Below are positions 1 to 58,753 of a stretch of 64,000 nucleotides of DNA, in pieces. Within the stretch, counting starts at the first letter, position 1, and every line of letters begins with the position of its first letter. A model generated the notes under the pieces. That model was not told where the DNA came from. It worked only from the letters and a program-made list of their open reading frames with translations, and did not search any database. Origin of the DNA: a virus (lineage: Duplodnaviria; Caudoviricetes); the IMG/VR virus record IMGVR_UViG_3300031998_000080, positions 832-64,831 of that record; one strand, 5' to 3'. Position numbers and translations under genes: made by a program.

Positions 1-36
1 GGGGTAACCAAGTTCAGTAAATTCTTTGTAAGTCAT
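1..36 (-). CDS. Small cassette protein, 5' part only (MTYKEFTELGYP...), runs off the window
   Basis: ATG 9 nt after the CGGCCCTAA motif; frame open to the window edge. Confidence 0.5.
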   Translation of the reverse strand, partial: MTYKEFTELGYP

Positions 37-45
37 ATCAGTCAA

Positions 46-54
46 TTAGGGCCG
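46..54 (-). repeat. Cassette-junction motif CGGCCCTAA followed by TTGACTGAT-ATG
   Basis: Reads CGGCCC TAA T TGA C TGA T ATG on the minus strand. Confidence 0.9.
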
Positions 55-66
55 AAAGTAGATGAG

Positions 67-258
67 TTATTCCTTCGTTTCTACCTTTCTACGGGAAACA
101 CGGGTGACAACGCCACGCAGTTTGTTATCGTGAGGTTCAAGGGGTTCAAAGACCTTTTCAAGTTCTTCGGCTATGACTTCGGGAGTCATAAGGTCTTTTG
201 ATTTCACGGTGATGGTATAGACATACACCGGAAGCGGAAGAGAATTTTCTTTAATCAT
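67..258 (-). CDS. Small cassette protein, paralog of 56932..57090
   Basis: 63 aa; TPEVIAEELEKVFEP...KLRG aligns by eye with HPEVVAEELLNIFDP...KLHG. Confidence 0.75.
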   Translation of the reverse strand: MIKENSLPLPVYVYTITVKSKDLMTPEVIAEELEKVFEPLEPHDNKLRGVVTRVSRRKVETKE

Positions 259-406
259 AGTTCGTTATGCAAATAAATTGTTTGTCATCATCATAAGCGA
301 CGCATTTGGTCTCACCCCACACACCGTGATGAATATCATTGTCGATGAGGACTTCCATTTCCATTGGGAAGTCAAGAAGTTTCTTAATGAGTTCTTTGTT
401 TGTCAT
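251..406 (-). CDS. Small cassette protein (MTNKELIKKLLDFP..., 51 aa)
   Basis: Translated by hand; ATG 11 nt after motif; N-terminus resembles MKVKELIKIL of 2453..2635. Confidence 0.7.
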   Translation of the reverse strand: MTNKELIKKLLDFPMEMEVLIDNDIHHGVWGETKCVAYDDDKQFICITNYD

Positions 407-417
407 ATCTAATTTAA

Positions 418-426
418 TTAGGGCCG
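418..426 (-). repeat. Cassette-junction motif CGGCCCTAA
   Basis: Exact match, 11 nt upstream of ATG at 406. Confidence 0.9.
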
Positions 427-541
427 AAGGTGCGTGTCTTTCTACTGCACTCCTGGGAAATTACTCCGTGGTCTGTCACCCGTAGGTTCAGGGATTCAGG
501 AAAAGACAACTACTATAATCCCTTTTTCGTTTTTCGCACCG
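427..541. ncRNA. Candidate structured non-coding cassette between two motifs
   Basis: No ATG-started ORF on the array strand; nested complementary segments GGTGCG/CGCACC, GTCTTT/AAAGAC, TCCTG/CAGGA and crossing AGGGATT/AATCCCT. Confidence 0.4.
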
Positions 542-550
542 TTAGGGCCG
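542..550 (-). repeat. Cassette-junction motif CGGCCCTAA
   Basis: Exact match; left boundary of the 255-bp near-duplication. Confidence 0.9.
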
Positions 551-558
551 GGAATGAC

Positions 559-738
559 TTACTTCTTCGTCCTCGGGCCGAGTGTTCTGCACATAATCTG
601 CGTAACGAGGCAATCGAACTTCCCTTCCTCATTCAGCACATCGCAAACTGCACAATTAATCTCGTTAAGATACTCCTCGTCTATGCGGAAATCGTCCGGG
701 ATAGACAAGTCGATGATGATTCGTTTGGCTTTACTCAT
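559..738 (-). CDS. Small cassette protein (MSKAKRIIIDLSIPDD..., 59 aa), copy 1
   Basis: Hand translation; 3 of the 5 coding differences from copy 2 are synonymous. Confidence 0.75.
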   Translation of the reverse strand: MSKAKRIIIDLSIPDDFRIDEEYLNEINCAVCDVLNEEGKFDCLVTQIMCRTLGPRTKK

Positions 739-804
739 AGCGGTAGCAAGTTTGGTGAATTTAGACTTTCATAAAGTTGGTATGGATTTATTCGTCAATA
801 TCTT

Positions 805-999
805 TCATATTCTTTTAATTGAAATTTCTACTGCGATGGGGTCATCGTCCCAAGACAGTTCTGGTAAAAACTCGTTCGGTTGTTTCATCCTTCCGTGACC
901 CACCCAATAATCATCTCCGTTCGGATTTGTGAATCTATGTGGGACACCTAAAAAGAAGTTTAGCCTCCCGTTTTCGTCTCTTGCGGCATATCCTTTCAT
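805..999 (-). CDS. Small hypothetical cassette protein
   Basis: 64-aa ORF, ATG 11 nt after motif. Confidence 0.75.
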   Translation of the reverse strand: MKGYAARDENGRLNFFLGVPHRFTNPNGDDYWVGHGRMKQPNEFLPELSWDDDPIAVEISIKRI

Positions 1000-1010
1000 A
1001 ACTCAATCAT

Positions 1011-1019
1011 TTAGGGCCG
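1011..1019 (-). repeat. Cassette-junction motif CGGCCCTAA followed by ATGATTGAGTT-ATG
   Basis: Directly abuts the stop codon of 1020..1349. Confidence 0.9.
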
Positions 1020-1349
1020 TTACTTACCACATTTCTTAAAAATATAAGTATAAGTAGTGTCCATATCTCTACCACTTCTAATAGTTATAGTGGTGTCAAT
1101 TTGAGGGGGAATAGATGTAACAATTTCTATTGGATGTGTCTTTTCGTATACCTCATGGCTATGTTCATTTATTCGTTTAATTAGAAAAATCCATAAACCA
1201 AGCATTGCTATTCCACATACTAATATCAAAACATTTTTGAACGAAAAGCCACAAACATCAGCGTCAATCCATCCATAACAAAAAACTGAAAATCCTAAAA
1301 TATAAAGAAGGACCAGACAAATTGCCAGTATGGTTCCTATGATTGTCAT
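1020..1349 (-). CDS. Hypothetical membrane protein (two predicted TM segments)
   Basis: Two hydrophobic N-terminal stretches. Confidence 0.7.
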   Translation of the reverse strand: MTIIGTILAICLVLLYILGFSVFCYGWIDADVCGFSFKNVLILVCGIAMLGLWIFLIKRINEHSHEVYEKTHPIEIVTSIPPQIDTTITIRSGRDMDTTYTYIFKKCGK

Positions 1350-1351
1350 AG

Positions 1352-1507
1352 CTATTTCGCTTGGTGAAACTTATCGGATATTTCTATCCCAACATTTAAC
1401 TCCGCTTCGTAGGCTTCACAGAGAAGAAGCGTCATTTTCTCAATGAGGGGACGGATGCTTTTCTCATTTTTGTCACGCATGAGTTCGCGTAATTCTTTCT
1501 GTGTCAT
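1352..1507 (-). CDS. Small hypothetical protein (MTQKELRELMRDK..., 51 aa)
   Basis: Hand translation; fills the gap in the operon. Confidence 0.6.
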   Translation of the reverse strand: MTQKELRELMRDKNEKSIRPLIEKMTLLLCEAYEAELNVGIEISDKFHQAK

Positions 1508-1528
1508 TTGTTTTCCTCCTTTCTTGCG

Positions 1529-1744
1529 TTAAGGGCAAGGAAATGAATTGATGTGTTTGATTAGTGTTTCAATAGCATAGGCGAAGTCCTCACTCACTCC
1601 AATCTTCTCCCAATTCTTCGCCCACTCCAAGAGATCGTCCTTGCGAATGTATTCGGTGGCCCCGGGAGAATCTTCCGTATCAAAGTGATTGCTCGGCACA
1701 TTCAGCCACTTGCCGGGAATGTAAATCTTGTCTGGGGTATTCAT
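1529..1744 (-). CDS. Hypothetical phage protein
   Basis: 71-aa ORF in the operon (PDKIYI...TEYIRKD). Confidence 0.7.
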   Translation of the reverse strand: MNTPDKIYIPGKWLNVPSNHFDTEDSPGATEYIRKDDLLEWAKNWEKIGVSEDFAYAIETLIKHINSFPCP

Positions 1745-1745
1745 T

Positions 1746-1907
1746 TCAGTTCTCGATTCTAATGTTAATCACCCACCCCGTGTCGTTACTTCCTGCTGGA
1801 TCAAAAGATATGTCCACATCCCGCCCTTCAAACTTCAGCGGAATATGTGCGGTGTTGAATTGACGCTGACATAAGTCTGCTTTCTGTATCAGTTCGGCGA
1901 GTGTCAT
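1746..1907 (-). CDS. Small hypothetical protein (MTLAELIQKADLCQRQFN..., 53 aa)
   Basis: Hand translation; tightly packed with neighbours. Confidence 0.6.
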   Translation of the reverse strand: MTLAELIQKADLCQRQFNTAHIPLKFEGRDVDISFDPAGSNDTGWVINIRIEN

Positions 1908-1909
1908 GG

Positions 1910-2450
1910 CTACGATTGCTTCAATTGTTCAAGACAGTAGTGGAGTTCTGCGACTTTATCTGCGATGGCAACATACTTATATTTCCGAAGTACATTCTCT
2001 GCGTTCATCAAGTCTTTCATCTGTTCCTCGCTCGGTTTCCAATGAGGCTGGGGGACGGAGGGATTTGAGCCTTTCTTCAAGCCACGCTGAAATGAAACTC
2101 GCGTCCCACTGGTCGGTTCGTTGATACTTTTGAAGGGCATTCTTACAAACAAGGAGATATTGTTCATCCTCCTCGCTCCACTCTGCGGGCTTCTGCTCTT
2201 TCTGCTTTTCGAGCCAAGTGAGCCACGGTTCGTAGATTGACAACATAACCTTGTCATCTTTGTTCATCCTAACAAGGTCTTTACAATGGCCAATCAACTC
2301 CTTCCTTATCCTCTCGTCCTCGCTCTCGCGGAGTTCGGGGAATACGGATTCAAGACAGATTTTCTCCTTATCGGTGCACCCGTCCTTTATCCACTGCGTC
2401 GCGGTTTGCAGGACCGCCTTGTATGATTTCTCGTAGTCAAAATTTTCCAT
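1910..2450 (-). pseudogene. QKPAEWSEEDE-type phage protein with an apparent single-base frameshift at a G5 run (2050-2054)
   Basis: ORF 1977..2450 (...LKSLRP) joins ORF 1910..2257 (QPHWKPSEEQM...) if one base is removed. Confidence 0.6.
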
Positions 2451-2452
2451 AA

Positions 2453-2635
2453 CTATTCCGCTATTGCTTTGATGATGATATCTCCGAAATCGACGGGGGT
2501 TGCGTTTGAGATATGTTCCTCTTTGGTGAGAGGGCGAATGTTGGTTGGTTTATAGAGGTCGTTGACCGCTTGGATGACCACCCTTTTCTCCTCGTCGAAC
2601 TGACCCAAAATCTTTATGAGTTCCTTTACTTTCAT
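2453..2635 (-). CDS. Small hypothetical protein
   Basis: 60-aa ORF, overlaps the upstream gene (ATGA). Confidence 0.7.
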   Translation of the reverse strand: MKVKELIKILGQFDEEKRVVIQAVNDLYKPTNIRPLTKEEHISNATPVDFGDIIIKAIAE

Positions 2636-3000
2636 AATTCGATCTCTTTGCTATATCGTTCGGGAATCTCGACGGTCTCCCCATTCATCGGTTCGGAATA
2701 GTAGTAGTCAAACACCTCGGCGTGTCCGTCCTCCTCATCATCTTTCACCTCCACCGTATCAGCATCGTAAAAGAGGCTGTCAAGAGTGTAGTCATACCTC
2801 GTGTTGTACTTCTCGAATACATCGCCAATCAGTTTCAGCGCCTCGTCAAGAGTGTCAGCCGCCACATCGAAAGTAGCCTCCTGGTAGCACTCATACTCCA
2901 CATCGTAGCATCCGCTACCTCTCCAGTACGGGGGGCAGTTGACATCCTTCACCCAGAAATGACCGAAGGCGCAAGTCTCAATCTTGTATATGTGTTTCAT
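2632..3000 (-). CDS. Acidic hypothetical protein
   Basis: 122-aa ORF in the operon. Confidence 0.75.
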   Translation of the reverse strand: MKHIYKIETCAFGHFWVKDVNCPPYWRGSGCYDVEYECYQEATFDVAADTLDEALKLIGDVFEKYNTRYDYTLDSLFYDADTVEVKDDEEDGHAEVFDYYYSEPMNGETVEIPERYSKEIEL

Positions 3001-3004
3001 TTAT

Positions 3005-3214
3005 TTAAGTTATCTGTAAAATGTCATTCTCTTCTTTTTCAAGCATTTGCTCGTAGAGGATGAATTCTTCATTTGGGTTGTAGTGGTCGTCGTAGTCAGG
3101 ATCAAACGGACTCTTTCCCAGGTTTTTGTTGTGTGGTCGTCGTGTCATTTGAAAACGCTTTAAATTGAACTCGGTAGTTCGGATATTTAACGAGCATGTC
3201 GGTGTAATGTTCAT
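3005..3214 (-). CDS. Small hypothetical protein (true start possibly later, MTRRPHNK)
   Basis: ORF track; DPDYD motif. Confidence 0.55.
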   Translation of the reverse strand: MNITPTCSLNIRTTEFNLKRFQMTRRPHNKNLGKSPFDPDYDDHYNPNEEFILYEQMLEKEENDILQIT

Positions 3215-3305
3215 AGGCTTTCTTTTCGTCGTGGAAGGTCTGCCATGATATAGTGTAATCCAGGTACGAGCCCGGTATGGAGACGATGACGTGGTATAAT
3301 ATCAT
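3102..3305 (-). CDS. Small hypothetical protein
   Basis: 67-aa ORF coupled to the upstream gene. Confidence 0.6.
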   Translation of the reverse strand: MILYHVIVSIPGSYLDYTISWQTFHDEKKAYEHYTDMLVKYPNYRVQFKAFSNDTTTTQQKPGKESV

Positions 3306-3565
3306 AGCCCTTTTGTTAAATTCTTTTCAAGCTCATAGAGAGAACTCATTGCTTTCTCGTAGAATCTATCTACCGAATCTGAATCAAGAACGGCGACATT
3401 CTGTGTCGCCAGAGCTGGATGCACATTTTTCACAACGGTTACTTCCATATCTTCTCTCATTTCATCTTGGATTCCAACGCTGATTACCTCGAAGTCTCGA
3501 GCTGTATCAACGTACTGCTTCATTGCCCAGGCGGGCCTCTCTTGGATTAAATTATTCTCTTTCAT
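3302..3565 (-). CDS. Hypothetical protein
   Basis: 87-aa ORF with ATGA overlaps. Confidence 0.7.
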   Translation of the reverse strand: MKENNLIQERPAWAMKQYVDTARDFEVISVGIQDEMREDMEVTVVKNVHPALATQNVAVLDSDSVDRFYEKAMSSLYELEKNLTKGL

Positions 3566-4152
3566 TTCTTTTCCTCCTCACCCTTGAAGTTGTACTTTGG
3601 CCCCCACGTCGGTACAAACATTCCCTTCTCCTTCTGCGCCTGAATCTCTTTCCACAGCCGTTCGTTCGCCTCCTTGTTCTCCTTCTCTATCTGCCGTGTC
3701 AAGATGCGGTGCGCCTCCAGTTTCTTCTCGGACGCCATGTACGATTTTAGGAAGCCGAGCAGGGTTTTCGGTGTCAGCCCTCGGAACTCCCCGTACACGC
3801 CCGTAACGCCAAGTCTCAACGCCTCTTGGATTTCGACCGAGGTAAGGTTGGAAATGGCGGGATCATCCATCATCGAAGCGTCGAGCACGTCGGTGTCAAT
3901 GGTCATCAGGTCCCATGAGGGAATGTTCTCTGGTCTTGTGTGGACGAGGACGTGGCACGCACCTATCTGTCGGAACAGCCACTGCTTCCGCTTATCCTCG
4001 TCGCCCTGCCGGTATCTCCGTGCGTTCGGGGAGAGAAGGTGCTGTGCGAGCAGTTCGGCAGAGCCGATTCTACTGTTCGTCCGCACCATCTTCCCCGCTT
4101 CCTGACGGAACTCCATAGGCACTTGGACCGCCATATCGGTATCGTTGTTCAT
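3562..4152 (-). CDS. Replication-module protein (possible helicase loader or initiator partner)
   Basis: Directly downstream of the initiator-like gene; function inferred from position only. Confidence 0.45.
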   Translation of the reverse strand: MNNDTDMAVQVPMEFRQEAGKMVRTNSRIGSAELLAQHLLSPNARRYRQGDEDKRKQWLFRQIGACHVLVHTRPENIPSWDLMTIDTDVLDASMMDDPAISNLTSVEIQEALRLGVTGVYGEFRGLTPKTLLGFLKSYMASEKKLEAHRILTRQIEKENKEANERLWKEIQAQKEKGMFVPTWGPKYNFKGEEEKK

Positions 4153-4696
4153 AATGAGCGTCTGCTTTTTCTATGTTCTCTTTGAGTATGTCTATGCTCG
4201 TTTTCGCCTTGCGGTTGTCGTAGTTCCCCTCGAGCACCTTCGTCCAGTTGGTGCCGTTGGAGAACAGCCAGTCGAACGTGGCGACCCACCTGCCGGATGC
4301 GCCCGTGCAGAAGTCCGACTCGTTAATCTTTCGGATGCACTCCCGTATCATGTCCTTCGCCTTGTCCCATCCTCCCATTTCCTTCACCCTCATGCGAATC
4401 TTCTCCTTCCTCGCTTTCGAGAGGTCCCGCACCTTCGGCACGTTCCCCTTCGCCGATGCGTTCCAGAGGAAAAGGACGCTCTGGTAGTCTATGTATTCCC
4501 GTTTTTCACGTTGTTCCTCGGTCTCCTTCTCGGTCTCGGCTGATTCGGATTCGGTTTCCGTTTCCTCTATCACGTTCCCGTAGGCCCATTCGACGAGCCG
4601 TTCTGCTTCCTCGAGGTCGTTCGTAGCGGCGTATGCGATGACACGGACGAGAGCCAGCGTGTCATCTTTGATTGTCAGTTTCGGTTCTTGTGGCAT
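4070..4696 (-). CDS. Phage replication initiator-like protein
   Basis: C-terminal ...RWVATFDWLF...NWTKVLEGNYDN motif typical of phage replisome organisers. Confidence 0.65.
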   Translation of the reverse strand: MPQEPKLTIKDDTLALVRVIAYAATNDLEEAERLVEWAYGNVIEETETESESAETEKETEEQREKREYIDYQSVLFLWNASAKGNVPKVRDLSKARKEKIRMRVKEMGGWDKAKDMIRECIRKINESDFCTGASGRWVATFDWLFSNGTNWTKVLEGNYDNRKAKTSIDILKENIEKADAHYEQRYRYGGPSAYGVPSGSGEDGADEQ

Positions 4697-4832: not shown

Positions 4833-5269
4833 CAGAACGGGAGATCGGATTCATCATCCTCGGCGGTCGCCTGCGGTTGGTATGCCGGTGCGCTCGGAGG
4901 GAGTTCGGTCTGCTTCGGCTCGGAGGGTGTCTCTTCCTCCTTCTTGTCGGGGTCGTACACGCCCCACACGTTGTTCTTCCCGAACCACTTGCCATTGTAT
5001 TCACGGGCGGTGGGCGAGTAAGTAACCCGCAGTCTCGCACCAATCTCGGTGGCGAGTACCACGTTCACCTTGTCCACCCCGAAGGCGTTGAACATGATGT
5101 GGTCATCCTTGCCCGTTGCGGTGGTGTACTTGAGGACAAAGTCCACGGACAGCCATTCGTCCCCGTTCCTCGTTCGCCCCGACCTGGGGTCTCCCACCCA
5201 GACGAGCTCTCCCTCGAAGGGCGCTGTGTCATTCGTTTTCATCTTCTTCTTTGCTTTCATTGATTTCAT
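4832..5269 (-). CDS. DUF3127-like OB-fold ssDNA-binding protein
   Basis: GTRNGDEW, FNAFGVDKV, AREYNGKWF motifs and an acidic DDESDLPF tail. Confidence 0.8.
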   Translation of the reverse strand: MKSMKAKKKMKTNDTAPFEGELVWVGDPRSGRTRNGDEWLSVDFVLKYTTATGKDDHIMFNAFGVDKVNVVLATEIGARLRVTYSPTAREYNGKWFGKNNVWGVYDPDKKEEETPSEPKQTELPPSAPAYQPQATAEDDESDLPF

Positions 5270-6140
5270 CTATGTTCTTGTTTTTGAGCAGGAAGGTACG
5301 CCCACGGGCGCCGGACTTCCACGTTGCGAGAGTCTTTCCTTCGTAGATGAGGGACTCGGCTTCGCCCATGTAGAGTTTCAGCGAATCCTTCAATGCGTCC
5401 GCGTCGGTTTCGAGGGCCGCCTTCTGTGTGTTCAGGCTTACGAGGGAGAGCAGATTCGCAACCGCCTCGTCGTCCGCCTCTATGGTGGTGCCCGGGTCGC
5501 TTCCCTTCATCACGAAGTCTGCTACGGAAATGAGTTCCGGCTCTTTCCCGCCGAGGACACAATCGTTCCAGAAGGCGTCCACCTGCTCGCCGATGAAGTT
5601 TGCGAAGGTCTCGTCCCATTCGACGGGTGCGTGTCCGAAGTACCGCCCGTTGGTCAGCCAACAGAGTTCGCACTTATGTATGCCCGTTATGAGCATCTGA
5701 TATTCACATTGTGCGACGTAGTAGACGGGCAGATCGTCTGGGTCGAACTCCATTGAGGACGTCTTGATTTCGAGAAGCATCTTCTCCTTCTTCCCTGACC
5801 ACGGACTTACGCTGTATGCGATGCGGTCGGGCGTGCACTTTCTCCACGGCTTCTCTGCGTCTTGGTAGATGATATCCTTTGCGGACGCTTTGACCGCCCT
5901 GCCACCAGTCTCTTCTTCCCAAAGGGAGACAACTACGGGCTCGAGCAAATGACCCAGACGCATCGCAAGGTTTTCCTCGAGCGGGGGGACCTGCTTTGTC
6001 TTTCGCAGATAGAGACTGAATGGTGTCTCCCAGGGGCTCAGTCCTAAGATTGCGCTCACCTCGGAGGCACCGATTCCGTCCTCTCTCGCCTTGAGCCATT
6101 CGTCATGGCTCGCCGGCTTGATGATGTTGGGTTTCATCAC
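5229..6140 (-). CDS. YqaJ-like viral recombinase exonuclease
   Basis: EWLKAREDGIGASEVSAILGLSPWET, TPDR, EIKT, YYVAQCEYQM motifs. Confidence 0.9.
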   Translation of the reverse strand: MMKPNIIKPASHDEWLKAREDGIGASEVSAILGLSPWETPFSLYLRKTKQVPPLEENLAMRLGHLLEPVVVSLWEEETGGRAVKASAKDIIYQDAEKPWRKCTPDRIAYSVSPWSGKKEKMLLEIKTSSMEFDPDDLPVYYVAQCEYQMLITGIHKCELCWLTNGRYFGHAPVEWDETFANFIGEQVDAFWNDCVLGGKEPELISVADFVMKGSDPGTTIEADDEAVANLLSLVSLNTQKAALETDADALKDSLKLYMGEAESLIYEGKTLATWKSGARGRTFLLKNKNIDEINESKEEDENE

Positions 6141-7024
6141 TCCTGATTTCCGAAGATTTCACCCGTCTCTGTGTCTGCGCCCTCGTCCTCCTTCGCCACG
6201 CGGTTAGCGGAACGGCGGGCCTTCATCGCTTCGACCTGCTCTTTCACGGCGTTCGCCTTTTCCTGCGCCGATTCGGACTGCACCGGCTGTGGCTGTTCGT
6301 CGGGAGTGTTGTCCGCATAGGTGGAGACGTTGTTCGCATCTGTTACGGACTGGTCATCACGGATAGCCTTCTGGAGTTCTGCGGACTTGGGGCAGAATTT
6401 CACGATAAGATTCTTGAGGACGGTCTTGAGGCACATGGCATCAAAATTATCTTTCCATATCCCGTAGCCCTTTTTGAATGTTTGAGAATAGCGCAGGGCG
6501 TGGGCCTTGCACTCTTCCACCGTCCAGTACACGGTCTTTTCAAAGCCATTGACGAGCTTGATGTACGCCATGTAGCCGATTACCTTGTCGGAGGTCTTTG
6601 CGTCCTCGTCGAACACATACTCGCCGGTAAACTTGTTCTTCTTGACAAGTTCCCCTTCGTGCACGATCTCGTTTGCGATGAACTTGACCTGTCCCGTACG
6701 CATGGCGAGTTCGACCCACCCGTTACGCATGATTTGGAACGAGGCGTTCTCTCCGTAGGGGATGACCGCCGCGAATCCCATGTTGCTCTCAATCGGGAGA
6801 CCGAGAGGAACAGACTTGAGCGCCGCGTGGAACACGGACATCGGCTTGCATTTCTGGAGGTTGGTGTCGTTCGCAACGACAGAGATAAGGGAGGTCATAA
6901 AGTTCTCCCTCGATTTCGGCTCTGCGAGTACGTCTGCGATGTACTGCTGTGCGCCCGCCCCGTAGAGTTGGGACTTGAATTTTTGCATCGGTCCCTGCTG
7001 GACCTGCGTGATTTCGTTTGCCAT
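6137..7024 (-). CDS. recT: RecT-family single-strand annealing recombinase
   Basis: LQKCKPMSV, LGLPIESNMGFAAVIPY, MCLKTVLKNLI motifs; paired with YqaJ. Confidence 0.88.
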   Translation of the reverse strand: MANEITQVQQGPMQKFKSQLYGAGAQQYIADVLAEPKSRENFMTSLISVVANDTNLQKCKPMSVFHAALKSVPLGLPIESNMGFAAVIPYGENASFQIMRNGWVELAMRTGQVKFIANEIVHEGELVKKNKFTGEYVFDEDAKTSDKVIGYMAYIKLVNGFEKTVYWTVEECKAHALRYSQTFKKGYGIWKDNFDAMCLKTVLKNLIVKFCPKSAELQKAIRDDQSVTDANNVSTYADNTPDEQPQPVQSESAQEKANAVKEQVEAMKARRSANRVAKEDEGADTETGEIFGNQE

Positions 7025-10474: not shown

Positions 10475-11770
10475 ATGGCAAACCTTTATCTTTATCTCGA
10501 CACGAGATATCCCGACCTCGAGGGTCGTGGCACTTTGAAAATGGCGATGACGCACAAGCGAAAGACCTCCTACGAGACGCTGGGCATCCGGCTACTCGCT
10601 GAGGAATGGAACAAGGAACATCAGCAGGTGGTCTCCCGTCCCGACAAGAAATTCCAGAACGTCCTTATCAGGAAACGCATGGCGGAGGCGACGCTCGCCC
10701 TGCAAAGGATAATGATGCGGGACGATTTCGAGAGGCTGGACGCAAAGCAGATTCTCCAGATGATTGTTCGTGGGACGGACACTGCGGACACGATCGAGAC
10801 GGCTGATTACGTCCTCCCCGTCTACAACGAGTACATAACCCTCGCAAAGAAACCGAACACGGCATCCTCCTACCGCTCGTCCCTCCGCAATCTCACGGAG
10901 TTCGAGAAGGACATCGACTCCCTGCGATTCAAGGATATCAGCGTGGCGTGGCTACGCAGGTATCAGAGGTGGCTCGAGGACGAGCGTGGTATGGGGACGA
11001 ACGGGGCGAACGTGTACCTCCGCAACCTCCGCACGGTGTTCAACTACGCCTTGCAGAACGAGTACACGAAGGCAAGATACCCGTTCAAGGATATCGACAT
11101 GAGCACCACCGAGCCGGACAAGCGTTTCGTTCCGTGGGACTTGTTCGTGGAATGGCTGTCTATCCCTATGGACAACGGACGCACCTACTACCGGGACCTT
11201 TTCATGCTGTCCTTCTACCTCTGCGGAATCCGTCCCGTGGATTTGCTGAAGGTCAAGAAGTCGCAGATTGAGCACGGACGGCTCGTCTACCACCCCGAGA
11301 AGCTGAACGGCAGGAAGAAACTCTCAATCAAGATTGAGCCCGAGGCATGGGCTATCATCCGCAAGTACGAGGGGAAGGAGTACATGCTGAACATAATGGA
11401 ACGCAGGACGGACTACAAGGCGTTCATGGCACACTGGAACAAGGCACTCCGAGCAATCGGGCATGACGAGCGGATTCCCCAGCTGTGCGGAAACGGACGC
11501 ACCTACAAGATTGTGAAGCATCACGGGGTGATTCCGTACATCACGGTCTACTATGCGAGGACTTGTTTCGCATCGTTCCTCTACAACGAAATGGACGTTT
11601 CAATGGACGTGATTTCTCAGGCACTCGGGCACAGCAACGGCTCATGCGTAACGAATTTCTACGTCAAGCGTGGCGAGTCGAAGGTGGACGAGGCAAACCG
11701 CTCGTTGATTGACCGGCTGAACGAGGCTCTCTCGCACAAGCACTCGACCCCTGCGTGGAAACCTGCGTAG
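10475..11770 (+). CDS. int: Tyrosine integrase (Bacteroidales type with arm-binding and SAM-like domains)
   Basis: CGIRPVDL, VYYARTCFAS, ALGHS, VTNFYV catalytic motifs. Confidence 0.93.
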   Translation: MANLYLYLDTRYPDLEGRGTLKMAMTHKRKTSYETLGIRLLAEEWNKEHQQVVSRPDKKFQNVLIRKRMAEATLALQRIMMRDDFERLDAKQILQMIVRGTDTADTIETADYVLPVYNEYITLAKKPNTASSYRSSLRNLTEFEKDIDSLRFKDISVAWLRRYQRWLEDERGMGTNGANVYLRNLRTVFNYALQNEYTKARYPFKDIDMSTTEPDKRFVPWDLFVEWLSIPMDNGRTYYRDLFMLSFYLCGIRPVDLLKVKKSQIEHGRLVYHPEKLNGRKKLSIKIEPEAWAIIRKYEGKEYMLNIMERRTDYKAFMAHWNKALRAIGHDERIPQLCGNGRTYKIVKHHGVIPYITVYYARTCFASFLYNEMDVSMDVISQALGHSNGSCVTNFYVKRGESKVDEANRSLIDRLNEALSHKHSTPAWKPA

Positions 11771-17774: not shown

Positions 17775-18056
17775 TTATTGTTCTTGGTCAAGGGTGTGTG
17801 CGGTAGTGAAAACCCACGCAATTTTACGCACCCCGTTCGTGTATTCCCGAATCTCATACTCGCCACCAAGTTTAGCAGTTTGGTTGTAACCGAGCCGAAA
17901 TCCGTTACTCAGCGTTCCGTCCTTTTCCCAATCACGGACAGACTTAACATAGAACAATCTTGCTTTGTCATAGTCCGTGAAATACCAACTCCATTGGTTG
18001 TTGTAGCCTTCATTCTCGTTCTTTGAGAATCTTTGATGAATGATAAAGAGTTTCAT
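17775..18056 (-). CDS. Hypothetical early protein
   Basis: ORF track, operon context. Confidence 0.7.
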   Translation of the reverse strand: MKLFIIHQRFSKNENEGYNNQWSWYFTDYDKARLFYVKSVRDWEKDGTLSNGFRLGYNQTAKLGGEYEIREYTNGVRKIAWVFTTAHTLDQEQ

Positions 18057-18158
18057 ATCCGTATCGGTTTTTAGTTCTCGTTTTCGGTACAGATCCAGTC
18101 CAAAATGGCTGAAAAAATGATTGCAGGAATGATAAAGTAGAGCATAGCGGAAAAGGTG

Positions 18159-18392
18159 TTAATATGATTCACAGATGCAGTCCATAACCATACAAGGTTT
18201 CCCGAAAGCGGGAACGCTTGTAAAGTATTCGTGATAGTCGGTGGGACTGATTACGATAAGCCGATTCTTTGCGTACCAATCGGCAATAATGTCAATGTCC
18301 GCATCGGTTATGCCCGTCCAATCATCGTTGATTAACGCACAGAGGGCATAGGTGGGTATTTTTTCGATAGTCCGTTCCATAGCGTTACGCAA
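18159..18392 (-). CDS. Hypothetical early protein
   Basis: IPTYALCALINDDWTGITDAD motif. Confidence 0.7.
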   Translation of the reverse strand: MRNAMERTIEKIPTYALCALINDDWTGITDADIDIIADWYAKNRLIVISPTDYHEYFTSVPAFGKPCMVMDCICESY

Positions 18393-18546
18393 CTTGTCTT
18401 GGTACTGCGATTCTGAACTCCTGCGAAGGGTTGCAGGAATGACGGAGTATCATTTCGCTTTCCGCATCATCTTGCGTGGCGAAACTCCCGTACAAGTGCC
18501 ATTTCTTTTCCTCGGGGCACTTTCCGATTAGCCAAAAATCTTTCAT
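18385..18546 (-). CDS. Small early protein (MKDFWLIGK...)
   Basis: Start chosen at the ATG following the leader module. Confidence 0.65.
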   Translation of the reverse strand: MKDFWLIGKCPEEKKWHLYGSFATQDDAESEMILRHSCNPSQEFRIAVPRQVA

Positions 18547-18603
18547 AATGCGTAGTGTTTTAGTTGTTGATTGGGTAGCGGATAGGGGGTCAGCCCACAC
18601 CGC
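18547..18603 (-). promoter_or_regulatory. Hairpin-CCAAT leader module (loop class CTGACC)
   Basis: GCGGTGTGGG-CTGACC-CCCTATCCGC, then CCAAT. Confidence 0.65.
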
Positions 18604-18615
18604 CACAAAAAGGGG

Positions 18616-18924
18616 TTATCGCACATTTGCGGTAACCTCTAAATAGTGCGTGCGATTCAGTTCCGCACATTCCAAACTATCGAAGAACGATTTGTTAGGA
18701 ACGTATTTCCGTTCGGCTTTGCAAATGAATCGCTTTGCGGTTTCAAGGCACCAAACGGGTTGAAGGTGCTCATTCCCGTAGACAAGGGAAAAATGGCTCT
18801 CGTTGTTGTCCTGCTTTTCGTAGTTCCTTTCCGCTATTGCGAAAAGTCCCGACCAATCGGTAGTGAAATAATAGTGGCTACCCGTAAATAGAACATTCAT
18901 GTTCTTTGTCTTGTAGATTTCCAT
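18616..18924 (-). CDS. Hypothetical early protein
   Basis: ORF track. Confidence 0.7.
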   Translation of the reverse strand: MEIYKTKNMNVLFTGSHYYFTTDWSGLFAIAERNYEKQDNNESHFSLVYGNEHLQPVWCLETAKRFICKAERKYVPNKSFFDSLECAELNRTHYLEVTANVR

Positions 18925-18938
18925 AACGCAGTAGGTTT

Positions 18939-19190
18939 TTATTTATCCCAACAAGTGAAACTTTTTGCAGGTCGGAAGGTGCAAGTGTAACGGGAGGGAG
19001 TGAAATACGGCTTGTCATAAGACCAATTCACATTCTTGTAGGAAGAATCGTTCCCGAATCCGTTTAGCATCTTGTCCGCCTCCGTCCAATTCTCACAGAC
19101 AGCGACTTGTTTGTGAATCTTTCCTTCGGCTTTTCCCCAACCCGAAAGAAATTTGTCGGTTGCCCAAACATAAATGGTTTCTTTTTCCAT
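18939..19190 (-). CDS. First gene of the early operon, hypothetical
   Basis: YVWATDKFLSGWGKAEG motif. Confidence 0.75.
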   Translation of the reverse strand: MEKETIYVWATDKFLSGWGKAEGKIHKQVAVCENWTEADKMLNGFGNDSSYKNVNWSYDKPYFTPSRYTCTFRPAKSFTCWDK

Positions 19191-19251
19191 AACTGATAGG
19201 TATTAAGTGTTAAACATTGGAACAGAGCAGGGGAACATTCAACCCCTGCCC
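19191..19251 (-). promoter_or_regulatory. Hairpin-CCAAT leader module (loop class TTGAnTG)
   Basis: GGGCAGGGG-TTGAATGTT-CCCCTGCTC (one G-U pair on the coding strand), then CCAAT. Confidence 0.7.
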
Positions 19252-19487
19252 CATTTAAAAGTACATTGGGAGTGGTACATTCTCTTTCGCATCTAAAATT
19301 ATTGTCCGTCCCGTATCGTGGGGGTATTCACTTACAACTTGTCAATGTGCTTCGGAGGTGTCGCAAACTTGTTGCCCCGTTGTTTCCTCTTTCGCCAACT
19401 CCCTTTAATGAAAGGGGTGCTTTGTCCGTCCGAGTTCGGAATGCGTGTGAGAGGTCAAACCTTCACGCTGGGTGAACTCTTCAAGGG

Positions 19488-19519
19488 CAAAGGTATAACG
19501 TTTATTTTTAATATGCAAG
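19488..19519 (-). promoter_or_regulatory. Early-operon promoter
   Basis: TACCTTTG -7 box; imperfect CTTG -33 box at 20 bp spacing. Confidence 0.6.
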
Positions 19520-21578
19520 CATTTTAATCAAATATTTTTGGGAAATTTTTTCACATTTTTTGGAAAACGGCATTACAACGCACTGCAACGCAGATTTTAA
19601 CCCCTAAAAAAATTTCTTTAATAAGGGTATTTTTTACGGAAATAGGCAGGAATCAGAACAAATTAACCCAAAATCTGTGAATGTGCCAAAACAAAGCACA
19701 AGCACAAATCCACAGAGGAATCGGCAAACAAAACAACACCGAATAACCTATCAAATGAATGTACTAACACACCAACACACAAAGCGAATAACAACTTTCT
19801 CTCCCCTTTCTTTCTTTTGGTATTTTCTTTCTTTTGCCCTCTCTTTGCGTAGATGAATAGATATTTCCTTATTGCCCTTAAAATTCGTTTGGATATTATC
19901 TTTCATCTCTATTCAATGAGAATAAGTCCTGCAATACGCACATACATACGCATACGCATATACACGATATGCACGCACGCATTATGCACACAATCCCGAC
20001 AAATCAATCAACCCATTATCCATACAACTCAATCAAAAAAAAGGGAAAGCAAACCGAATCCAAACAGCACTAATCAAGCGTAAACTATTGGGAATCAATG
20101 GGGATTCGATACTCCAACAAAAATGTTGGGGTTTCGCCCTCGCACGGGGAATGGCAAATCTAATGTCCAATTTTCCATATCAAGAACGGAAAATCAAGAA
20201 TAAAAAGGGGAAAATAGTACACTGAACTACTGAAAGTATGCTCTTTGAGAATACGAAAATGTTTATTTGACTGCGTTGTATTGGTGTTTTTGTGTATGTT
20301 CGACAAACATTTTGCAAGCGTTCAGGGAAAAATGGTGTGGGAGTACGGGAGAATTGGAAGGTGTACGCATGGGGGAACACAGGGGTATGGGCAAGGCGAA
20401 AAGGAACTCCATATCCGGGGAGTCGGATAGTATCAAGCGCTAAATATGGACCTTTTTCAGTTTTTAGTTCCTGCTTTGTTTTTGTTTTGCTTTGTGATGA
20501 TGTTTCATCGAGCTGTCTGGTGCTGTCGTTTGTTTTGGATCGTGGAGTGTTTGGGTGTGTTGTTTGTTCCAGGATGGGTGGGGGTAGGCATGTTTTTCCT
20601 TGAGTTTCGGTGTTAGAACTGTACCCGGGGAATCTGGATATCACAGACGATGATTCGGGGGTGCGGTTTCACATGGTGTGAAGATTTGTTCGCTTTGGGG
20701 TCTGGTTTTGGCTGTGGCGTGATTTCTTTTGGAAGATGATAGATTTATCATTTCGGAGGATTGGAGTGATTGTAGGGGATTTGTGGAGGCTTGGTGTGTG
20801 AAAGAAAAACCCTCCGTACCTTCTCGGCAGGGAGGGAAACCACCAATAGTTTGGCTAAAACCTTTGAAATGAAGAAATGCGTTGTGTTGTTGGGGGGAGT
20901 TTGCTGTCCCCATGAATAGCGAAATGTGTTCCCCCGGATGCAAAGATAGTGAAAAAAGTTCACTTGGGGTGAAAAAGATTGTGTTTGCTTATTGGTCGGT
21001 AATTTCTTTGTAACGGATTGGGTTAGAGGATTTTACGAGGGGAAACGGGGCGAAAAGTAGGGCACAAATTGCGGTTGGATAGTTCTCTGGGTGTGAATAT
21101 TCTGGAAATTTTGTGGTATGTTTGTCATGTCGGAGTGGTGGCCGGCGCACAGTTTGGAAAGTTATGCCCCAGTATGGGGTGTTAGTACGCGCCTGTTCGT
21201 TGTCCGCCACATTAGACGAACAGGCGGTATTTTTTTGTCCGCCTGGAAATACGCCTGAGAAGCGGGAGGTCTTTCCACGGTTCCCTTCCCGAAAAAGAAA
21301 GAACGTCGTGAGTCCCGATCCGTGGCGCGGAACGGGGCCGCAGGAAATTAAAAGCAGTGCGGGCAACGAGCGACTCTCGACCCGCGACCTCATGACGCCT
21401 GCGGTTGCGCTACGGGGAGCCTTGAGAGGGGAGGATTGAGACACGGGGCAGACCGCCCGCCCCGACAACGTCTCTCTGGACGTAAGGGTTTTTCAGGATG
21501 CTTTCTTGGATGGAAAGAGAATATCCGCTTGTTCCGAAGGGTTCGGGTTATGAGGGATATAGAGGGGGCGGAGTGTGC
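19520..21578. other. About 2-kb non-coding region with a sharp strand-skew switch near 20250
   Basis: Left part A/C-rich and right part G/T-rich on the plus strand; no convincing ORFs. Confidence 0.7.
21190..21236 (+). terminator. Terminator-like hairpin
   Basis: CGCCTGTTCGT/ACGAACAGGCG stem followed by GTATTTTTTT. Confidence 0.55.
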
Positions 21579-53227: not shown

Positions 53228-56200
53228 ATGGCAACGGTAACATACAACTGCACGGGATGCGTGGTCATCGACCGCGCTGTCATCGACGCATACAACATAC
53301 TCACATCAACGGAGGAATACGTCTCTTCCGCAGAAAGCGACCGCGCTACTGCGGAGGAGGCCAGAGTCCTTGCCGAGCAGGGGCGTGTCCAGCAGGCTTC
53401 CGACGACCACGGCGTCGCGCAGGAGGACCACCGAATCGCGGTCGCCGACCACGGTACTGCCGGTGATGACCACACCACGGCGACGGGAGACCACCGCACG
53501 GCATCCGACGACCACACCACAGCAGTGGCCGACCACGGCACGGCGAGTGACGACCATGTGGCGAGCACCTCCGCGACCGACCGTGCCAATGATGCGGCGG
53601 CGGCCGCCGAGCACATGGTGGACATTCATCAGGGCCCTCCCGGACCAGAGGGCAAACCCGCCGTCCTCGGGAACAACGGGAACTGGTGGACATGGGACGA
53701 GGACACCGAGCAGTACGTCGATACGGGTCAGCGGGCGCAAGGTCCGACTGGCGCGACGCCTAACTTCGCCATTGGCACGGTCAGCACCGGCGCCGCAGGA
53801 TCGCAAGCGGCGGCCACTATCACGGGCACTACCGACAACCCCCTGCTGAATCTCACAATCCCGCAGGGTCTCAAGGGCGACCAGGGCAACACGGGTAGTT
53901 CTGTGGACTATCCGTACGAGCTTGTGAACAACGAGACGACGGACGATGCCACGAAGGGTGCGACCGCCGCGAGCGCCAAAAGACTGAAGGACGAACTCAG
54001 TCAGTTAGAGGCCGATTTGACTGAATACGAATACGAACGAGGACAGATTGACGAGGAAAACGATGCGAAGGTTTTTGGCGGCTCTCCCGTTATTATGCCA
54101 TACGGCCTCACCAAACTGAATTGGGAACAGGCGAATCATTCCCGCAAGGTAGCATTTGAAAACGGGGAAATCGTTTTCTATGCGAGTGGGGTTGCGGGGT
54201 GTTTGGCATCACAGGCAGACGCAAACATATTCAACGAATCGAAGGCATTTCTTCAAATAGACACATCTTCCGACTTTTGGACGAACGATGCTCGGCAACT
54301 GAAACTCGATGTCGAGTATAGTTGTGGTTATGCGGCAAATCTTCGCATCTATTATCGCAAAGAAAACAATACGAATTTGGGATATACGGATGCCGCGATA
54401 CCATCGGGGACGGGAACCACAACGGTAGATGTTAGGTCTTTATTGATGACCGCCCAACCATCTTCGTATTCACACATCAACCAAATAACCGTAGGTGGAT
54501 TCTATCACCAGGGAGAAACCTACGGAACGATACAGGCAAAGACTGCCGGATTCTATTCTACCTATGTCGGTGCAATTCCGGGAGTGGAATCGGCATTGGG
54601 TGGCATCGAAGACAAGGGGAAATGGTTGGAAGAAACGAATCTTGTTTCTATCGCCACAAAGACCACCGGGAAATACGCAAAGTATGAGGATGGATATATC
54701 TATTCAACTTCTGCTTCACTTGAAACATACGAAGTTGCGGTGGATAATTATGACCAAATTATTGTGCGTGTTGCGGGAAACGGCACAACGGCGGCGGCTA
54801 TCGCTTTTTATGGGGATAATGCACCGGACAATTATTCTTATCTTGGTGGTGTTCAATCCGAATCAACAACGGGGAAATGGTTTGTCGCATCCGTTCCTGT
54901 TGGTGCGAAAACGATGGTTGTAACGAACTATTATGCGGATGTTCCTACTCCGAAAATTCTTGGACAAAGTTCCAAAGAATTTCGAGCATTGAAGGATGCG
55001 GACAATACCCCGTGGATTGACGGGACGAATCTCCTTTCCGGTGCAACGAGAACGACGCAGAAATACGCAAGATATTCCGATGGCGTATTACCGACATCGG
55101 GGGCAGCAAACGAAATCGAGGCCATCCAATTCTCCGTAGTCGGTTATGATATTATTTGGGTATATGTGGCATCCTCGGATGCAGTCCCGGCAGCGATTGC
55201 CTTCTATACTTCCGCAACTCCGGGGAGTGGTTCGTATATTAAGGGCCGTAGTGTTCAAATCAAAGCGGGATTCCATTGGTATTCCGCAATCGTTCCATCG
55301 TCTGCCGTTTGTGCGGTTGTGTCGAATAAATACGGCTATCTAATTAACCCGGTAATTATGGGGGGCAAGGCAGAACCGATGAAACTTCTTTCGGAAACAG
55401 GAGAAGGGATGGCAAAAAAGACATCCTATTCCGGTCTTGCTCTCAATAAATTATTCTACCACCACATCAATGTGGAAGTGGAGAGTGCCTATACAACCAT
55501 CCCTTCGCAGTCCTTAATGGATATTCGATATGCAAAGGAACTTGGTTTCGATTTCATCGAGGCGAATGTGCAGAAGTGTTCGGACGATGTATATGTAGTT
55601 AAGCACGGAAACAACGGGACATTGGGTGCGGGTGTGAAACTGATTGGCGGTGGCGATTGTTCTACGGTGCGTTTTGACGAAGTGACGAGCACCTGGCTAC
55701 GGGAAAATGTAGTTTACGATTCCACGATTGCGAAGGACTGCGTTTCTATTCCTACATTGGAGGAGTTCTGCAAGGAAGCAAAAAACCTCAATATAGGTAT
55801 CCTTGTCGCCGGATATACGAACGCAGACGATGTTCTTCCCATCGTTCGTAAGTATCTCCCGGACGAAAAGACGGTCTTTCTTGGACTGACCGAACGAGGG
55901 GACTATAAGGGTATGATTTCGGTATGGGAAAGTATCTCGTCCGTGGATGATGCGGTGGCATTTGTCGAACGGTATGGATTGCCGTTTGAACTTGGATGGA
56001 ATATAAGTTCATACCTCGGTGCGACACAAACCCTCATAGATTCCGTGGTCGCAAAGATGCACGAAATGGGTGCGTTGGTTGGTACTGCGTATGTAAATGC
56101 GACAAACGCAAAGAAGGCAAAGGAAGATGGACTCGATTTCCTCGGCTCTACTTATAAGGTGACGAATCCTTCCTTGATTGGAAATCTACACAACATCAAG

Positions 56201-56544: not shown

Positions 56545-56553
56545 CGGCCCTAA
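56545..56553 (+). repeat. Cassette-junction motif CGGCCCTAA
   Basis: Begins 2 nt after the tail fibre stop codon. Confidence 0.9.
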
Positions 56554-56565
56554 TTAATAGAAATT

Positions 56566-56706
56566 ATGACATTACAAGTAATAAAAGCCAAAGCCAAAGC
56601 CATTCTTTTAAGTGACAATCTCGACTTCCGGGATTACTATGATTTCGTGGAAGAACTTGCTGAAATGGACATCGAAACCGAGCTAAATCCGGCCCTAATT
56701 GATTGA
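56566..56706 (+). CDS. Small cassette protein (MTLQVIKAKAKAILL..., 46 aa) ending inside the next motif
   Basis: Hand translation; reads through CCG GCC CTA ATT GAT and stops at the motif's last TGA. Confidence 0.6.
   Translation: MTLQVIKAKAKAILLSDNLDFRDYYDFVEELAEMDIETELNPALID
56690..56698 (+). repeat. Cassette-junction motif CGGCCCTAA followed by TTGATTGAGAT-ATG
   Basis: Exact match. Confidence 0.9.
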
Positions 56707-56709
56707 GAT

Positions 56710-56916
56710 ATGACTGAAAAAGAAACAAAGATTTTGACGGACTTGGTGGAAAAGTTCGGATTGTATGAGGATGAATGTAGCAACGAAATACATTTCCTCG
56801 CAGAACATAACTTCAATATCCAAAAGGAAGTTGTGGACTTCAAAAGACAGGCATTTCACACCTGTTATCGTGAGTTGCGGAATGTGGTGGAACACCTACA
56901 AAGTAAACAAGAATAA
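56710..56916 (+). CDS. Small cassette protein
   Basis: 68 aa, ATG 11 nt after motif. Confidence 0.7.
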   Translation: MTEKETKILTDLVEKFGLYEDECSNEIHFLAEHNFNIQKEVVDFKRQAFHTCYRELRNVVEHLQSKQE

Positions 56917-56931
56917 TTCTATACCAACTTT

Positions 56932-57090
56932 ATGAAAGTCGTTCATTTTACCTTCGCCATCGAAACGCCAGATGCCATCCACCCGGAGGTGGTGGCAGAA
57001 GAACTGCTGAACATCTTCGACCCGTTCGGGGAAGATGGGAAACTGCACGGAACAATTATCGAAGTTAAGTCCGAAGATTGGAACAAGTAA
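56932..57090 (+). CDS. Small cassette protein (MKVVHFTFAIETP..., 52 aa), paralog of 67..258
   Basis: Hand translation and alignment by eye. Confidence 0.7.
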   Translation: MKVVHFTFAIETPDAIHPEVVAEELLNIFDPFGEDGKLHGTIIEVKSEDWNK

Positions 57091-57098
57091 GCCACTCT

Positions 57099-57119
57099 CT
57101 GCCCTAATCGACTGACTTG
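57099..57119 (+). repeat. Variant terminal motif CTGCCCTAATCGACTGACTT
   Basis: Shares GCCCTAAT.GACTGACTT with 63528..63547. Confidence 0.7.
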
Positions 57120-57197
57120 GGAACGCCGAAAACCGCGGGTGTACGGCGCGGCGAGTAGGCTTCCCTCTTAATAAACACACATAAAAGGCAAAGGAAT

Positions 57198-57752
57198 ATG
57201 CAACGCATTTTGCAGAGCATCTGGCTCAAACAAATGGACATCGTGCAGAGTCCGGGCGGGTGGTTTGCCGGCCTCGGCCTGTTCGTGTTGGAAGCGCTGA
57301 CGGGTGGGAAGCTCGTCATCTACACGGTGGTCATTGCGTCCATCATCGACCTGGCCTGCGGCATCGCGGTAAGCCAGAAGAAGAAGCAGTTCACCTTGTC
57401 GGAACTGATGCGGAACACGGTAGAGAAACTCGCCGTGTACGGAGCCGTACTCCTCGCGTTCCTGTGCCTCGACAAGGTCATCTCGGCAGACACCACGCTC
57501 GACATAGCCATCACATCCGGCCTCGTCGGAGCCGTGATTACCATGTCGGAGGCGTGGTCGTTCTCGGCGTCTCTCCTTATCTTGTTCCCGAAGAACTCGT
57601 TCCTGCGCCTAATGCAGAAGGCGCTGACCGGCGAGATCGCGAAGAAACTCGGTTGCGAGCCGGAGGAGGTGGAGGCAATCCTCAAGACCTACCGCGACAA
57701 GAAGCCTCAGCCCCGCAACGAGAAGGGGCAGTTCGTTAGCAAGAAGAAATGA
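57198..57752 (+). CDS. Holin (phage holin 4-like)
   Basis: Several TM segments, IIDLACGIAVS, EAWSFSASL; precedes the endolysin. Confidence 0.75.
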   Translation: MQRILQSIWLKQMDIVQSPGGWFAGLGLFVLEALTGGKLVIYTVVIASIIDLACGIAVSQKKKQFTLSELMRNTVEKLAVYGAVLLAFLCLDKVISADTTLDIAITSGLVGAVITMSEAWSFSASLLILFPKNSFLRLMQKALTGEIAKKLGCEPEEVEAILKTYRDKKPQPRNEKGQFVSKKK

Positions 57753-58339: not shown

Positions 58340-58362
58340 TCTCTTAACTCTATACCAACGCC

Positions 58363-58752
58363 ATGAAGGTCTTTATATCGGTTCTTCTCTACCTCTGGCA
58401 ACTCCCGCAGAATCTGCTGGGGCTGTTCCTCGTCCTCTTCCTGCGTCCCGAGTTCCACATTGACTTCCGCACCTCCCGCATCTACTACTCGACGGAAATG
58501 CGTGGCGGTATCTCCCTCGGAAGGTACATCATACTGCGGGACACATACTGGGAGAAGGAAGGGGATTCCGAACTGCACGAATACGGGCACGGCAGGCAGT
58601 CCCTTTTCCTCGGCCCGCTCTATCTGTTCGTGATAGGGATTCCGTCAATCCTATGGGCGGCGTGGTGGAACGAGGACAGGGGCGTGTCCTACTATTCGTT
58701 CTACACCGAACGCTGGGCCGACCTTCTGGGCGGAGTGAACAGATGCGAGTAA
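58363..58752 (+). CDS. Membrane protein with HEYGH zincin-like motif
   Basis: WQLPQNLLG, GGISLGRYI, LHEYGHGRQS, FYTERWAD. Confidence 0.7.
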   Translation: MKVFISVLLYLWQLPQNLLGLFLVLFLRPEFHIDFRTSRIYYSTEMRGGISLGRYIILRDTYWEKEGDSELHEYGHGRQSLFLGPLYLFVIGIPSILWAAWWNEDRGVSYYSFYTERWADLLGGVNRCE

Positions 58753-58753
58753 G

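Follow-up and report, generated by a model that had tools for sequence, protein, structure and literature searches.

A near-duplicate in a rumen phage contig and the probable exchange of small-gene modules at a short junction motif

A segment of 255 bases occurs twice, in nearly identical form, in the contig of a temperate tailed phage, and the similarity between the two copies stops inside a short motif that recurs at gene junctions. This stop at the motif is real and is replicated across independent phages. The stretch of DNA analysed here (64,000 nucleotides, called the window) corresponds to bases 832-64831 of a single-contig IMG/VR record of 64,831 bp (IMGVR_UViG_3300031998_000080). We consider it likely that the two copies represent one locus seen twice in the 63.2-kb circular or permuted genome of a temperate rumen phage of Bacteroidales type, and that modules of small genes are exchanged through copies of the motif. 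The contig would run once round a genome of about 63.2 kb and overlap itself inside a 59-aa gene, its two ends would come from co-occurring variants, and the switch from near-identity to no similarity falls inside the motif. Since this short motif is common to numerous gene junctions in otherwise diverse rumen phages, its copies could recombine, either by homology or through microhomology, and the intervening DNA would thereby be reassorted. The phage YqaJ/RecT pair or host RecA could be the agents of this recombination, selection would afterwards retain intact junctions, and a module made of a 64-aa and a 59-aa gene would be one such exchangeable unit. We infer both this recombination mechanism and the primary role of the motif from sequence comparisons.

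The record encodes a P22-like portal, a large terminase and a SU10-type capsid protein, together with an amidase, a tail fibre with a GDPD domain, an ORF of 5,359 aa and an S24 repressor. The G+C content is 56-62% over the structural genes and the giant gene (22000-54000) and 41-48% over the accessory arrays and the distal tail fibre (1-4000, 18000-20000 and 54000-56000). In relatives, motif copies located at array ends (L025, L033, L034 and L067:930-986) are followed by canonical Bacteroidetes promoters (TTTG, then TAnnTTTG), and a contig of a rumen Ca. Cryptobacteroides MAG (L062) carries the motif in phage-like DNA; the promoters and this contig point to rumen Bacteroidales as the hosts. 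When an isolated-phage collection was searched with both window ends and the 115-nt insert described below, no relative was retrieved, the sole match being to the HNH gene.

The near-duplicate and the junction motif

The two copies are located as follows:

542-796, minus strand: copy 1, made of the motif, the 59-aa gene and part of the upstream spacer; allele joined to flank A (from sequence and blastn)
63746-64000, minus strand: copy 2, allele joined to flank B, cut by the contig end (from sequence, record coordinates and blastn)

In a gapless blastn alignment, 249 of the 255 bases were identical (E = 3e-123), and a blastn self-comparison of the record returned this pair as its sole sizeable repeat. 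The repeated segment contains the junction motif, the minus-strand 59-aa gene and 58 bases upstream of this gene. The six differences between the copies lie at window positions 547, 572, 631, 670, 687 and 688. The first falls in the motif, which reads CGGCCC in copy 1 and CGGTCC in copy 2; the five others are inside the gene, three of them being synonymous and two replacing an amino acid (R18C and R56K). Read in the sense of the gene, identity between the copies ends at the last A of the TAA in CGGCCCTAA. Beyond this TAA, copy 1 continues with CGGTGCG and then a 115-nt stretch devoid of ORFs, whereas copy 2 continues with TTGAACGAATATG and then the 60-aa MKDNGT gene. An earlier note on this DNA had claimed the 249-base match, its end at the TAA with these two continuations, and three synonymous changes among five coding differences, all of which were borne out by the alignment and the sequence.

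The core CGGCCCTAA is present in eight copies in the record, one of which reads CGGTCCTAA, with a degenerate ninth copy, CTGCCCTAA, and the copies are always in the sense of the neighbouring genes. They belong to two arrays of small genes, one on the minus strand (46-1019 and 63539-63754) and one on the plus strand behind the tail fibre (56545-57107):

46-54, minus strand: motif in flank A, ahead of a 134-aa gene that runs past the window start
418-426, minus strand: motif in flank A, ahead of a 51-aa gene
542-550, minus strand: motif CGGCCCTAA downstream of the 59-aa gene; point of divergence between flanks A and B
1011-1019, minus strand: motif bounding the module upstream; start of the homology with L002, L048 and L049
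56545-56553, plus strand: motif immediately after the tail-fibre gene, opening the plus-strand array
56690-56698, plus strand: motif in the plus-strand array; ENA contig Sl381ZIu ends here by coordinate arithmetic
57099-57107, plus strand: degenerate motif CTGCCCTAA at the end of the plus-strand array, then a GC-rich hairpin region
63539-63547, minus strand: motif of the array-end class (TTGACTGACTTA, then non-coding), conserved in L004
63746-63754, minus strand: variant motif CGGTCCTAA downstream of the copy-2 allele, then TTGAACGAATATG and the MKDNGT gene

The full motif, (TCACTTT)CGGCCCTAA(TTGAYTGAnTT ATG), lies between a stop codon and the next start codon. A scan of IMG/VR with a 17-nt version yielded 43 loci, many of which have multiple co-oriented copies, and 81 distinct contexts gave the consensus TTY CGGCCCTAA TTGAYTGA nTT ATG, the most common arrangement placing the ATG 11 nt past the core. 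Conservation extends over about 26 nt around the 9-nt core. The motif is asymmetric and its core has no inverted partner; by our own reading, the consensus contains a weak dyad around the core (TCAnTTnnGG / CCnnAAnTGA). A second class of the motif (TTGACTGACTT...) is located at array ends and is followed by GC-rich hairpins or promoters. The end region found after CTGCCCTAA in the window also follows the two-gene module in L048 and L065.

The fixed orientation of the motif, its position between stop and start codons and its 11-nt distance to the ATG indicate a role in expressing the downstream gene of the operon, and its primary role is probably that of an intercistronic expression signal, as judged from these sequence features. 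It should be noted that recombination alone does not account for the strictness with which the 9-mer is conserved in very different phages. Scans with sigma-70-like promoter consensus sequences found no site at any motif copy, and no terminator-like site was found at the motif copies, hairpins following the array-end class only. Rfam gave no match over the whole window, and a literature search for the motif string returned unrelated primers and constructs only. In 185,579 bacterial and archaeal species genomes, the 20-mer motif occurred three times, which is about the chance expectation; one of the three matches is real and lies on a phage-like contig of the rumen Ca. Cryptobacteroides MAG. 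Because of this near-absence, the motif is regarded as a phage feature, and a general bacterial host signal was rejected.

Several variations on the motif were observed. In the IMG/VR loci that were fetched, seven copies of TTGAYTGA are preceded by the variant core GGCCTCTAA; L067 (598-745) contains the variant cores CGGCCCAAA and CGGCCCTAC, in which the left part ACTTTCGGCCC is retained. Certain upstream genes lack a stop codon and are terminated by one of three staggered stops that the motif supplies (TAA-TTGA-TTGA). In L048, the 106-aa gene (4219-4539) terminates at the third of these, and window 56566-56706 is also of this kind. In six IMG/VR loci (L006, L008, L017, L020, L024 and L045), two motif copies face apart with 35 nt between them. 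These divergent pairs (e.g. L006:8588-8648) are flanked by repeated GGAACAATG words and look like a divergent control or origin region.

The two-gene module and its possible exchange

The 59-aa gene belongs to a module bounded by a motif copy on each side:

542-1019, minus strand: module of 479 bp, motif to motif, with the 64-aa and 59-aa genes; recurs in L002/L050, L048/L065, L049 and L066
805-999, minus strand: 64-aa ORFan, first gene of the module
559-738, minus strand: 59-aa ORFan, allele P0003; no Pfam or PHROG family match
63763-63942, minus strand: 59-aa ORFan, allele P0004, differing from P0003 by R18C and R56K
764-793, minus strand: 30-nt junction sequence shared with window 56911-56940; crossover point in L067

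Small accessory genes of phages often serve host takeover or anti-defence. Pfam gave no match for the cassette proteins of 59, 64, 60, 51, 63, 134, 103 and 46 aa, and the PHROG matches of cassette proteins were limited to weak ones (51 and 109 aa) with families of unknown function.

The module was found, with 95-97% identity, in at least six contexts. Contexts A and B are those of the window itself, with flanks A and B. In context C (L002/L050, a 59.8-kb phage), a 108-aa gene precedes the module and a 91-aa gene follows it. In context D (L048 and L065), the module follows tail-fibre genes and leads into the end region of the plus-strand array of the window. The unit 56545-56713 of the window comes after the module in context E (L049), and in context F (L066) the module, covered over window 818-542 only because the locus ends there, stands ahead of a 482-aa tail gene. 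Contexts C, D and F were found again in the gene tables of further ENA and Logan contigs. In an alignment of the module across contexts, relatedness ended at the core on either side, the flanks beyond it being unrelated. The joins at the module edges are seamless inside the shared core, without a single extra or missing base in the six contexts, and differing flanks share the 9-nt core plus at most TTGA, i.e. 9-13 nt. Comparison of context D with the window further shows that the module has moved between two arrays located at different genomic places.

The 30-nt sequence (ATACCAACTTTATGAAAGTC and its neighbours) is present both in the internal spacer of the module and where the 52-aa gene of the plus-strand array begins. 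In the Logan contig L067 (365-395), the 59-aa gene is fused to the 68-aa gene of the window (56710-56916) exactly through this sequence; 764-793 and 56911-56940 thus constitute a second exchange point, without the motif.

The phage encodes two sets of enzymes that bear on the mechanism:

5229-7024, minus strand: YqaJ-like exonuclease and RecT single-strand annealing protein, candidate recombination machinery
10475-11770, plus strand: arm-type tyrosine integrase with Arm-DNA-bind_5, Phage_int_SAM_5 and Phage_integrase domains; unlike an integron integrase both by its place and by its domains

Exchange via the shared motif sequence followed by selection for intact junctions is favoured, because of the seamless joins, the 30-nt junction of L067 and the presence of the YqaJ/RecT pair. 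The L067 join, made through another shared sequence, fits recombination at any short shared sequence. YqaJ/RecT-type proteins recombine short, diverged homologies, and the minimal pairing segment of Red-beta is 23-27 bp (PMC3945230). The extended motif is close to this length and the 9-13-nt shared stretch is below it. Only 4 of the 33 virus records that bear the motif contain RecT, which weakens it as a candidate for the general agent.

Alternatively, the motif could be the core site of a dedicated recombinase, the tyrosine integrase or another enzyme, in a site-specific, integron-like cassette system. We regard this as quite improbable. Breakpoints exact to the 9-13-nt core in every context, a core invariant across very different phages, the weak dyad around it and the movement of the module between two arrays would all suit such a system, as would the tyrosine integrase present in 11 of 14 near-complete motif-bearing records. 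However, this frequency matches the expectation for temperate phages generally; the integrase, which is the sole tyrosine recombinase of the phage, is an ordinary arm-type enzyme encoded about 10 kb away from the arrays, and 3 of the 14 complete records lack it. In addition, the co-orientation of the motif with the genes and its position 11 nt before the ATG suggest an expression signal, no attC-like hairpin was found, and the L067 exchange took place at a different shared sequence. In a broader form, in which the CGGCCCTAA junction is a recognition element of some dedicated machinery, either a recombinase or a recombination-coupled factor acting at the RNA level, the proposal is still unlikely. 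If true, the small-gene arrays of rumen Bacteroidales phages would be a cassette-exchange system common to phages that are otherwise unrelated, a counterpart of integrons with another site and another enzyme.

To our knowledge, the swapping of small accessory genes is mostly ascribed to random illegitimate recombination and selection, with PeSL as the clear exception. PeSL (promoter-early stem-loops) are repeated intergenic elements of T4-type phages, for which a like logic of exchange between copies has been proposed (Arbiol et al. 2010, PMC2839356; Comeau et al. 2014, PMC4122927). Neighbouring PeSL recombine to give mini-circles. Both PeSL and the motif are repeated, intergenic and placed just upstream of small ORFans in variable regions; in both, the ends of indels or replacements between related phages fall on the elements, which move together with the genes that they flank. 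By contrast, PeSL are about 100 bp long with a sigma-70-like promoter and a stem-loop terminator, whereas the motif has a 9-nt core and about 26 nt in its extended form, matches neither promoter nor terminator and is located inside operons, 11 nt before the ATG; the hosts here are Bacteroidales, as far as the sequences indicate, and the phages are temperate and not T4-like. Membership of the PeSL was consequently rejected, the ORFan-adjacent breakpoints being present and both the promoter and the stem-loop being missing.

The arrays resemble integrons in being co-oriented, in containing mostly single small ORFs with a recurring site, and in that the same unit occurs in different arrays. In integrons, IntI is encoded adjacent to the array, together with attI and Pc, and the attC sites, of about 55-140 bp, are imperfect inverted repeats able to fold into hairpins. 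Here, no IntI-type integrase lies beside the array and there is no attI or Pc; the site is short, asymmetric and tied to the next start codon, and has no foldable repeat of attC type. Membership of the integrons was rejected on IntI/attI and on attC, although the cassette was found in different arrays.

For lambdoid phages, an older idea holds that linker or boundary sequences serve in exchange. Relaxed homologous recombination by Rad52-like phage annealing proteins is described as a source of mosaicism (De Paepe et al. 2014, PMC3945230). In line with both, short gene-boundary sequences are the exchange points between unrelated DNA in the phages studied here, and YqaJ and RecT are present in the window; the shared sequence is however shorter than the 23-27 bp of Red-beta and RecT is absent from most relatives. 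By analogy, the arrays of these uncultured rumen phages may represent another form of module exchange guided by a motif, working like PeSL shuffling. It would be a second, independent case of such shuffling besides PeSL, in which the ends of a module that moved from phage to phage, and from one array to the other within one genome type, fall exactly on a concrete sequence of 9-26 nt.

Layout of the contig and its two flanks

The window reaches the last base of the record, and copy 2, which forms the final 255 bases of the contig, is therefore truncated at the contig end; copy 1 begins 1,372 bases inside the contig. The two copies lead into different flanks:

1-541, plus 831 bases to the contig start, minus strand: flank A, with the 115-nt non-coding insert and the 51-, 63- and 134-aa genes; no match to flank B
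62994-63745, minus strand: start of flank B, with the 60-aa MKDNGT gene (63553-63735), a motif, a non-coding stretch and a 103-aa gene

Blastn of the first 1,372 contig bases against the 1,372 bases preceding copy 2 gave no match. Flanks A and B are unrelated over at least 1.4 kb, and the versions of the downstream region found in ENA also differ.

In ENA assembly ERZ27257204, the 8,358-bp contig Sl381ZIu, compared like the other ENA contigs through gene tables and exact-protein look-ups rather than DNA, encodes the exact 71-aa protein of window 1532-1744. The exact copy-2 allele lies 791 nt downstream of this gene, a spacing equal to that of copy 1 in the window. After it come the flank-B genes of 103, 110, 136, 225, 115, 79 and 160 aa in the order and spacing of the window, collinearity extending down to about 56700. 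By coordinate arithmetic, Sl381ZIu corresponds to window 56700 to 64000 joined to 797 to 1853, that is, to a circle of 63,204 bp in which the gene occurs once. The flank-A genes of 63 and 134 aa were found on a separate contig of 5,638 bp in the same ENA sample; the start of this contig corresponds to about window 599, within the shared gene, and it continues into a DUF7841 region that differs. The flank-A and flank-B versions each end in a convergent DUF7841 gene (114 and 169 aa). Among the relatives, L004 has homologs of window 2342-1753 joined to flank B at the motif. In L003, a homolog of the flank-A 134-aa gene lies downstream of the 2342-1753 block, and this 71.9-kb record gave no nucleotide match with flank B.

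On the basis of the ENA contigs and of these two relatives, flanks A and B are considered to be alternative sequences of a single locus. The best reading of the contig is a single passage round a circular or permuted 63.2-kb genome, extended by the tail of a second variant, and the near-duplicate itself is most likely an ordinary assembly wrap-around across two variants. We infer this mixture of two variants from other assemblies. As in contigs of circular phages that overlap themselves, the end repeats a sequence near the start and the distance between the copies gives the unit of 63,204 bp; the difference is that the overlap is not at both termini and that the copies are not identical. The linear class assigned to the record by IMG/VR would result from the 1,372 bases of the second variant carried by the contig start. 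A direct terminal repeat was rejected, since copy 1 lies 1,372 bases inside the contig, 6 of the 255 bases differ and the record is classed as linear.

A true duplication, in which a longer genome would carry the module twice in one array, once before flank A and once before flank B, is very unlikely. The contig would end within the second copy on account of the repeat, at which assemblers do interrupt contigs; over its final 108 bases the contig shows no difference from copy 1, a divergence of 6 in 255 bases that is partly synonymous is as in paralogs, and relatives of about 72 kb exist. However, the copy-2 allele is preceded on an independent contig by the 71-aa gene at the identical 791-nt distance, so that a duplication would need to span at least 1.3 kb. 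Moreover, both flanks lead to a convergent DUF7841 gene, as expected of allelic regions, none of the records examined carries both flank types, and the 64.8-kb record is already 100% complete according to CheckV.

The earlier note had left two readings side by side and had proposed to inspect the sequence past both window edges, where copy 2 proved to be terminal in the record and flank A to continue for 831 bases. Its second reading, a unit of 63,204 bp with alternative alleles at the ends, is supported, and its first, duplication within an array, is disfavoured. It had also described the alleles as differing by cassettes inserted at the motif: the crossover at the motif stands, but insertion understates the difference between two flanks without relationship over such a distance. 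If the contig does hold one locus in two variants, virus records may exceed the genome in length and mix two variants, and near-duplicates at contig ends should therefore not be taken for paralogs.

Two further observations concern these regions. The 115-nt stretch of flank A (427-541, minus strand), which lies between two motif copies, has no ORF and no homolog in any fetched locus; a structured RNA was not supported (fold z-score -1.39, 16 of 200 shuffles folding as well), and the stretch may be a decayed cassette. Sl381ZIu ends at about window 56700, on a motif copy of the plus-strand array (56690-56712 region, by coordinate arithmetic), which suggests population variation there too.

Breakpoints among relatives

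When phages were compared with each other, 29 of the 326 ends of homology blocks lay at most 20 nt from a core, against 3.4 expected at random positions. Among same-strand gene junctions adjoining a homologous block, breakpoints were present at 14 of the 17 motif-bearing junctions and at 58 of the 160 motif-less ones (odds ratio 8.2, p = 4e-4), a count that is only indicative because the ORF calls are crude and the loci partly related. The earlier note had placed the crossover at the motif and had named breakpoints unrelated to it in relatives as evidence that would count against this. Those of the relatives are enriched at the motif, and the five further contexts of the same module strongly support the placement. 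That the motif has no part in recombination, illegitimate exchange occurring anywhere and only joins at gene boundaries surviving selection, is the least probable of the alternatives, for although motif-less junctions are breakpoints as well and the block shared with L016 covers only the 51-aa gene at window 1344-1509, motif junctions are breakpoints far more often and the joins are seamless in the core at every module edge, in six contexts.

Relatives also differ from the window within flank B. The 225-aa HNH endonuclease gene (PHROG 374; 61589-62266, minus strand) is absent at that place in L002 and L004, L002 being also devoid of the neighbouring 136-aa HTH gene, and it looks like a free-standing homing endonuclease insertion.
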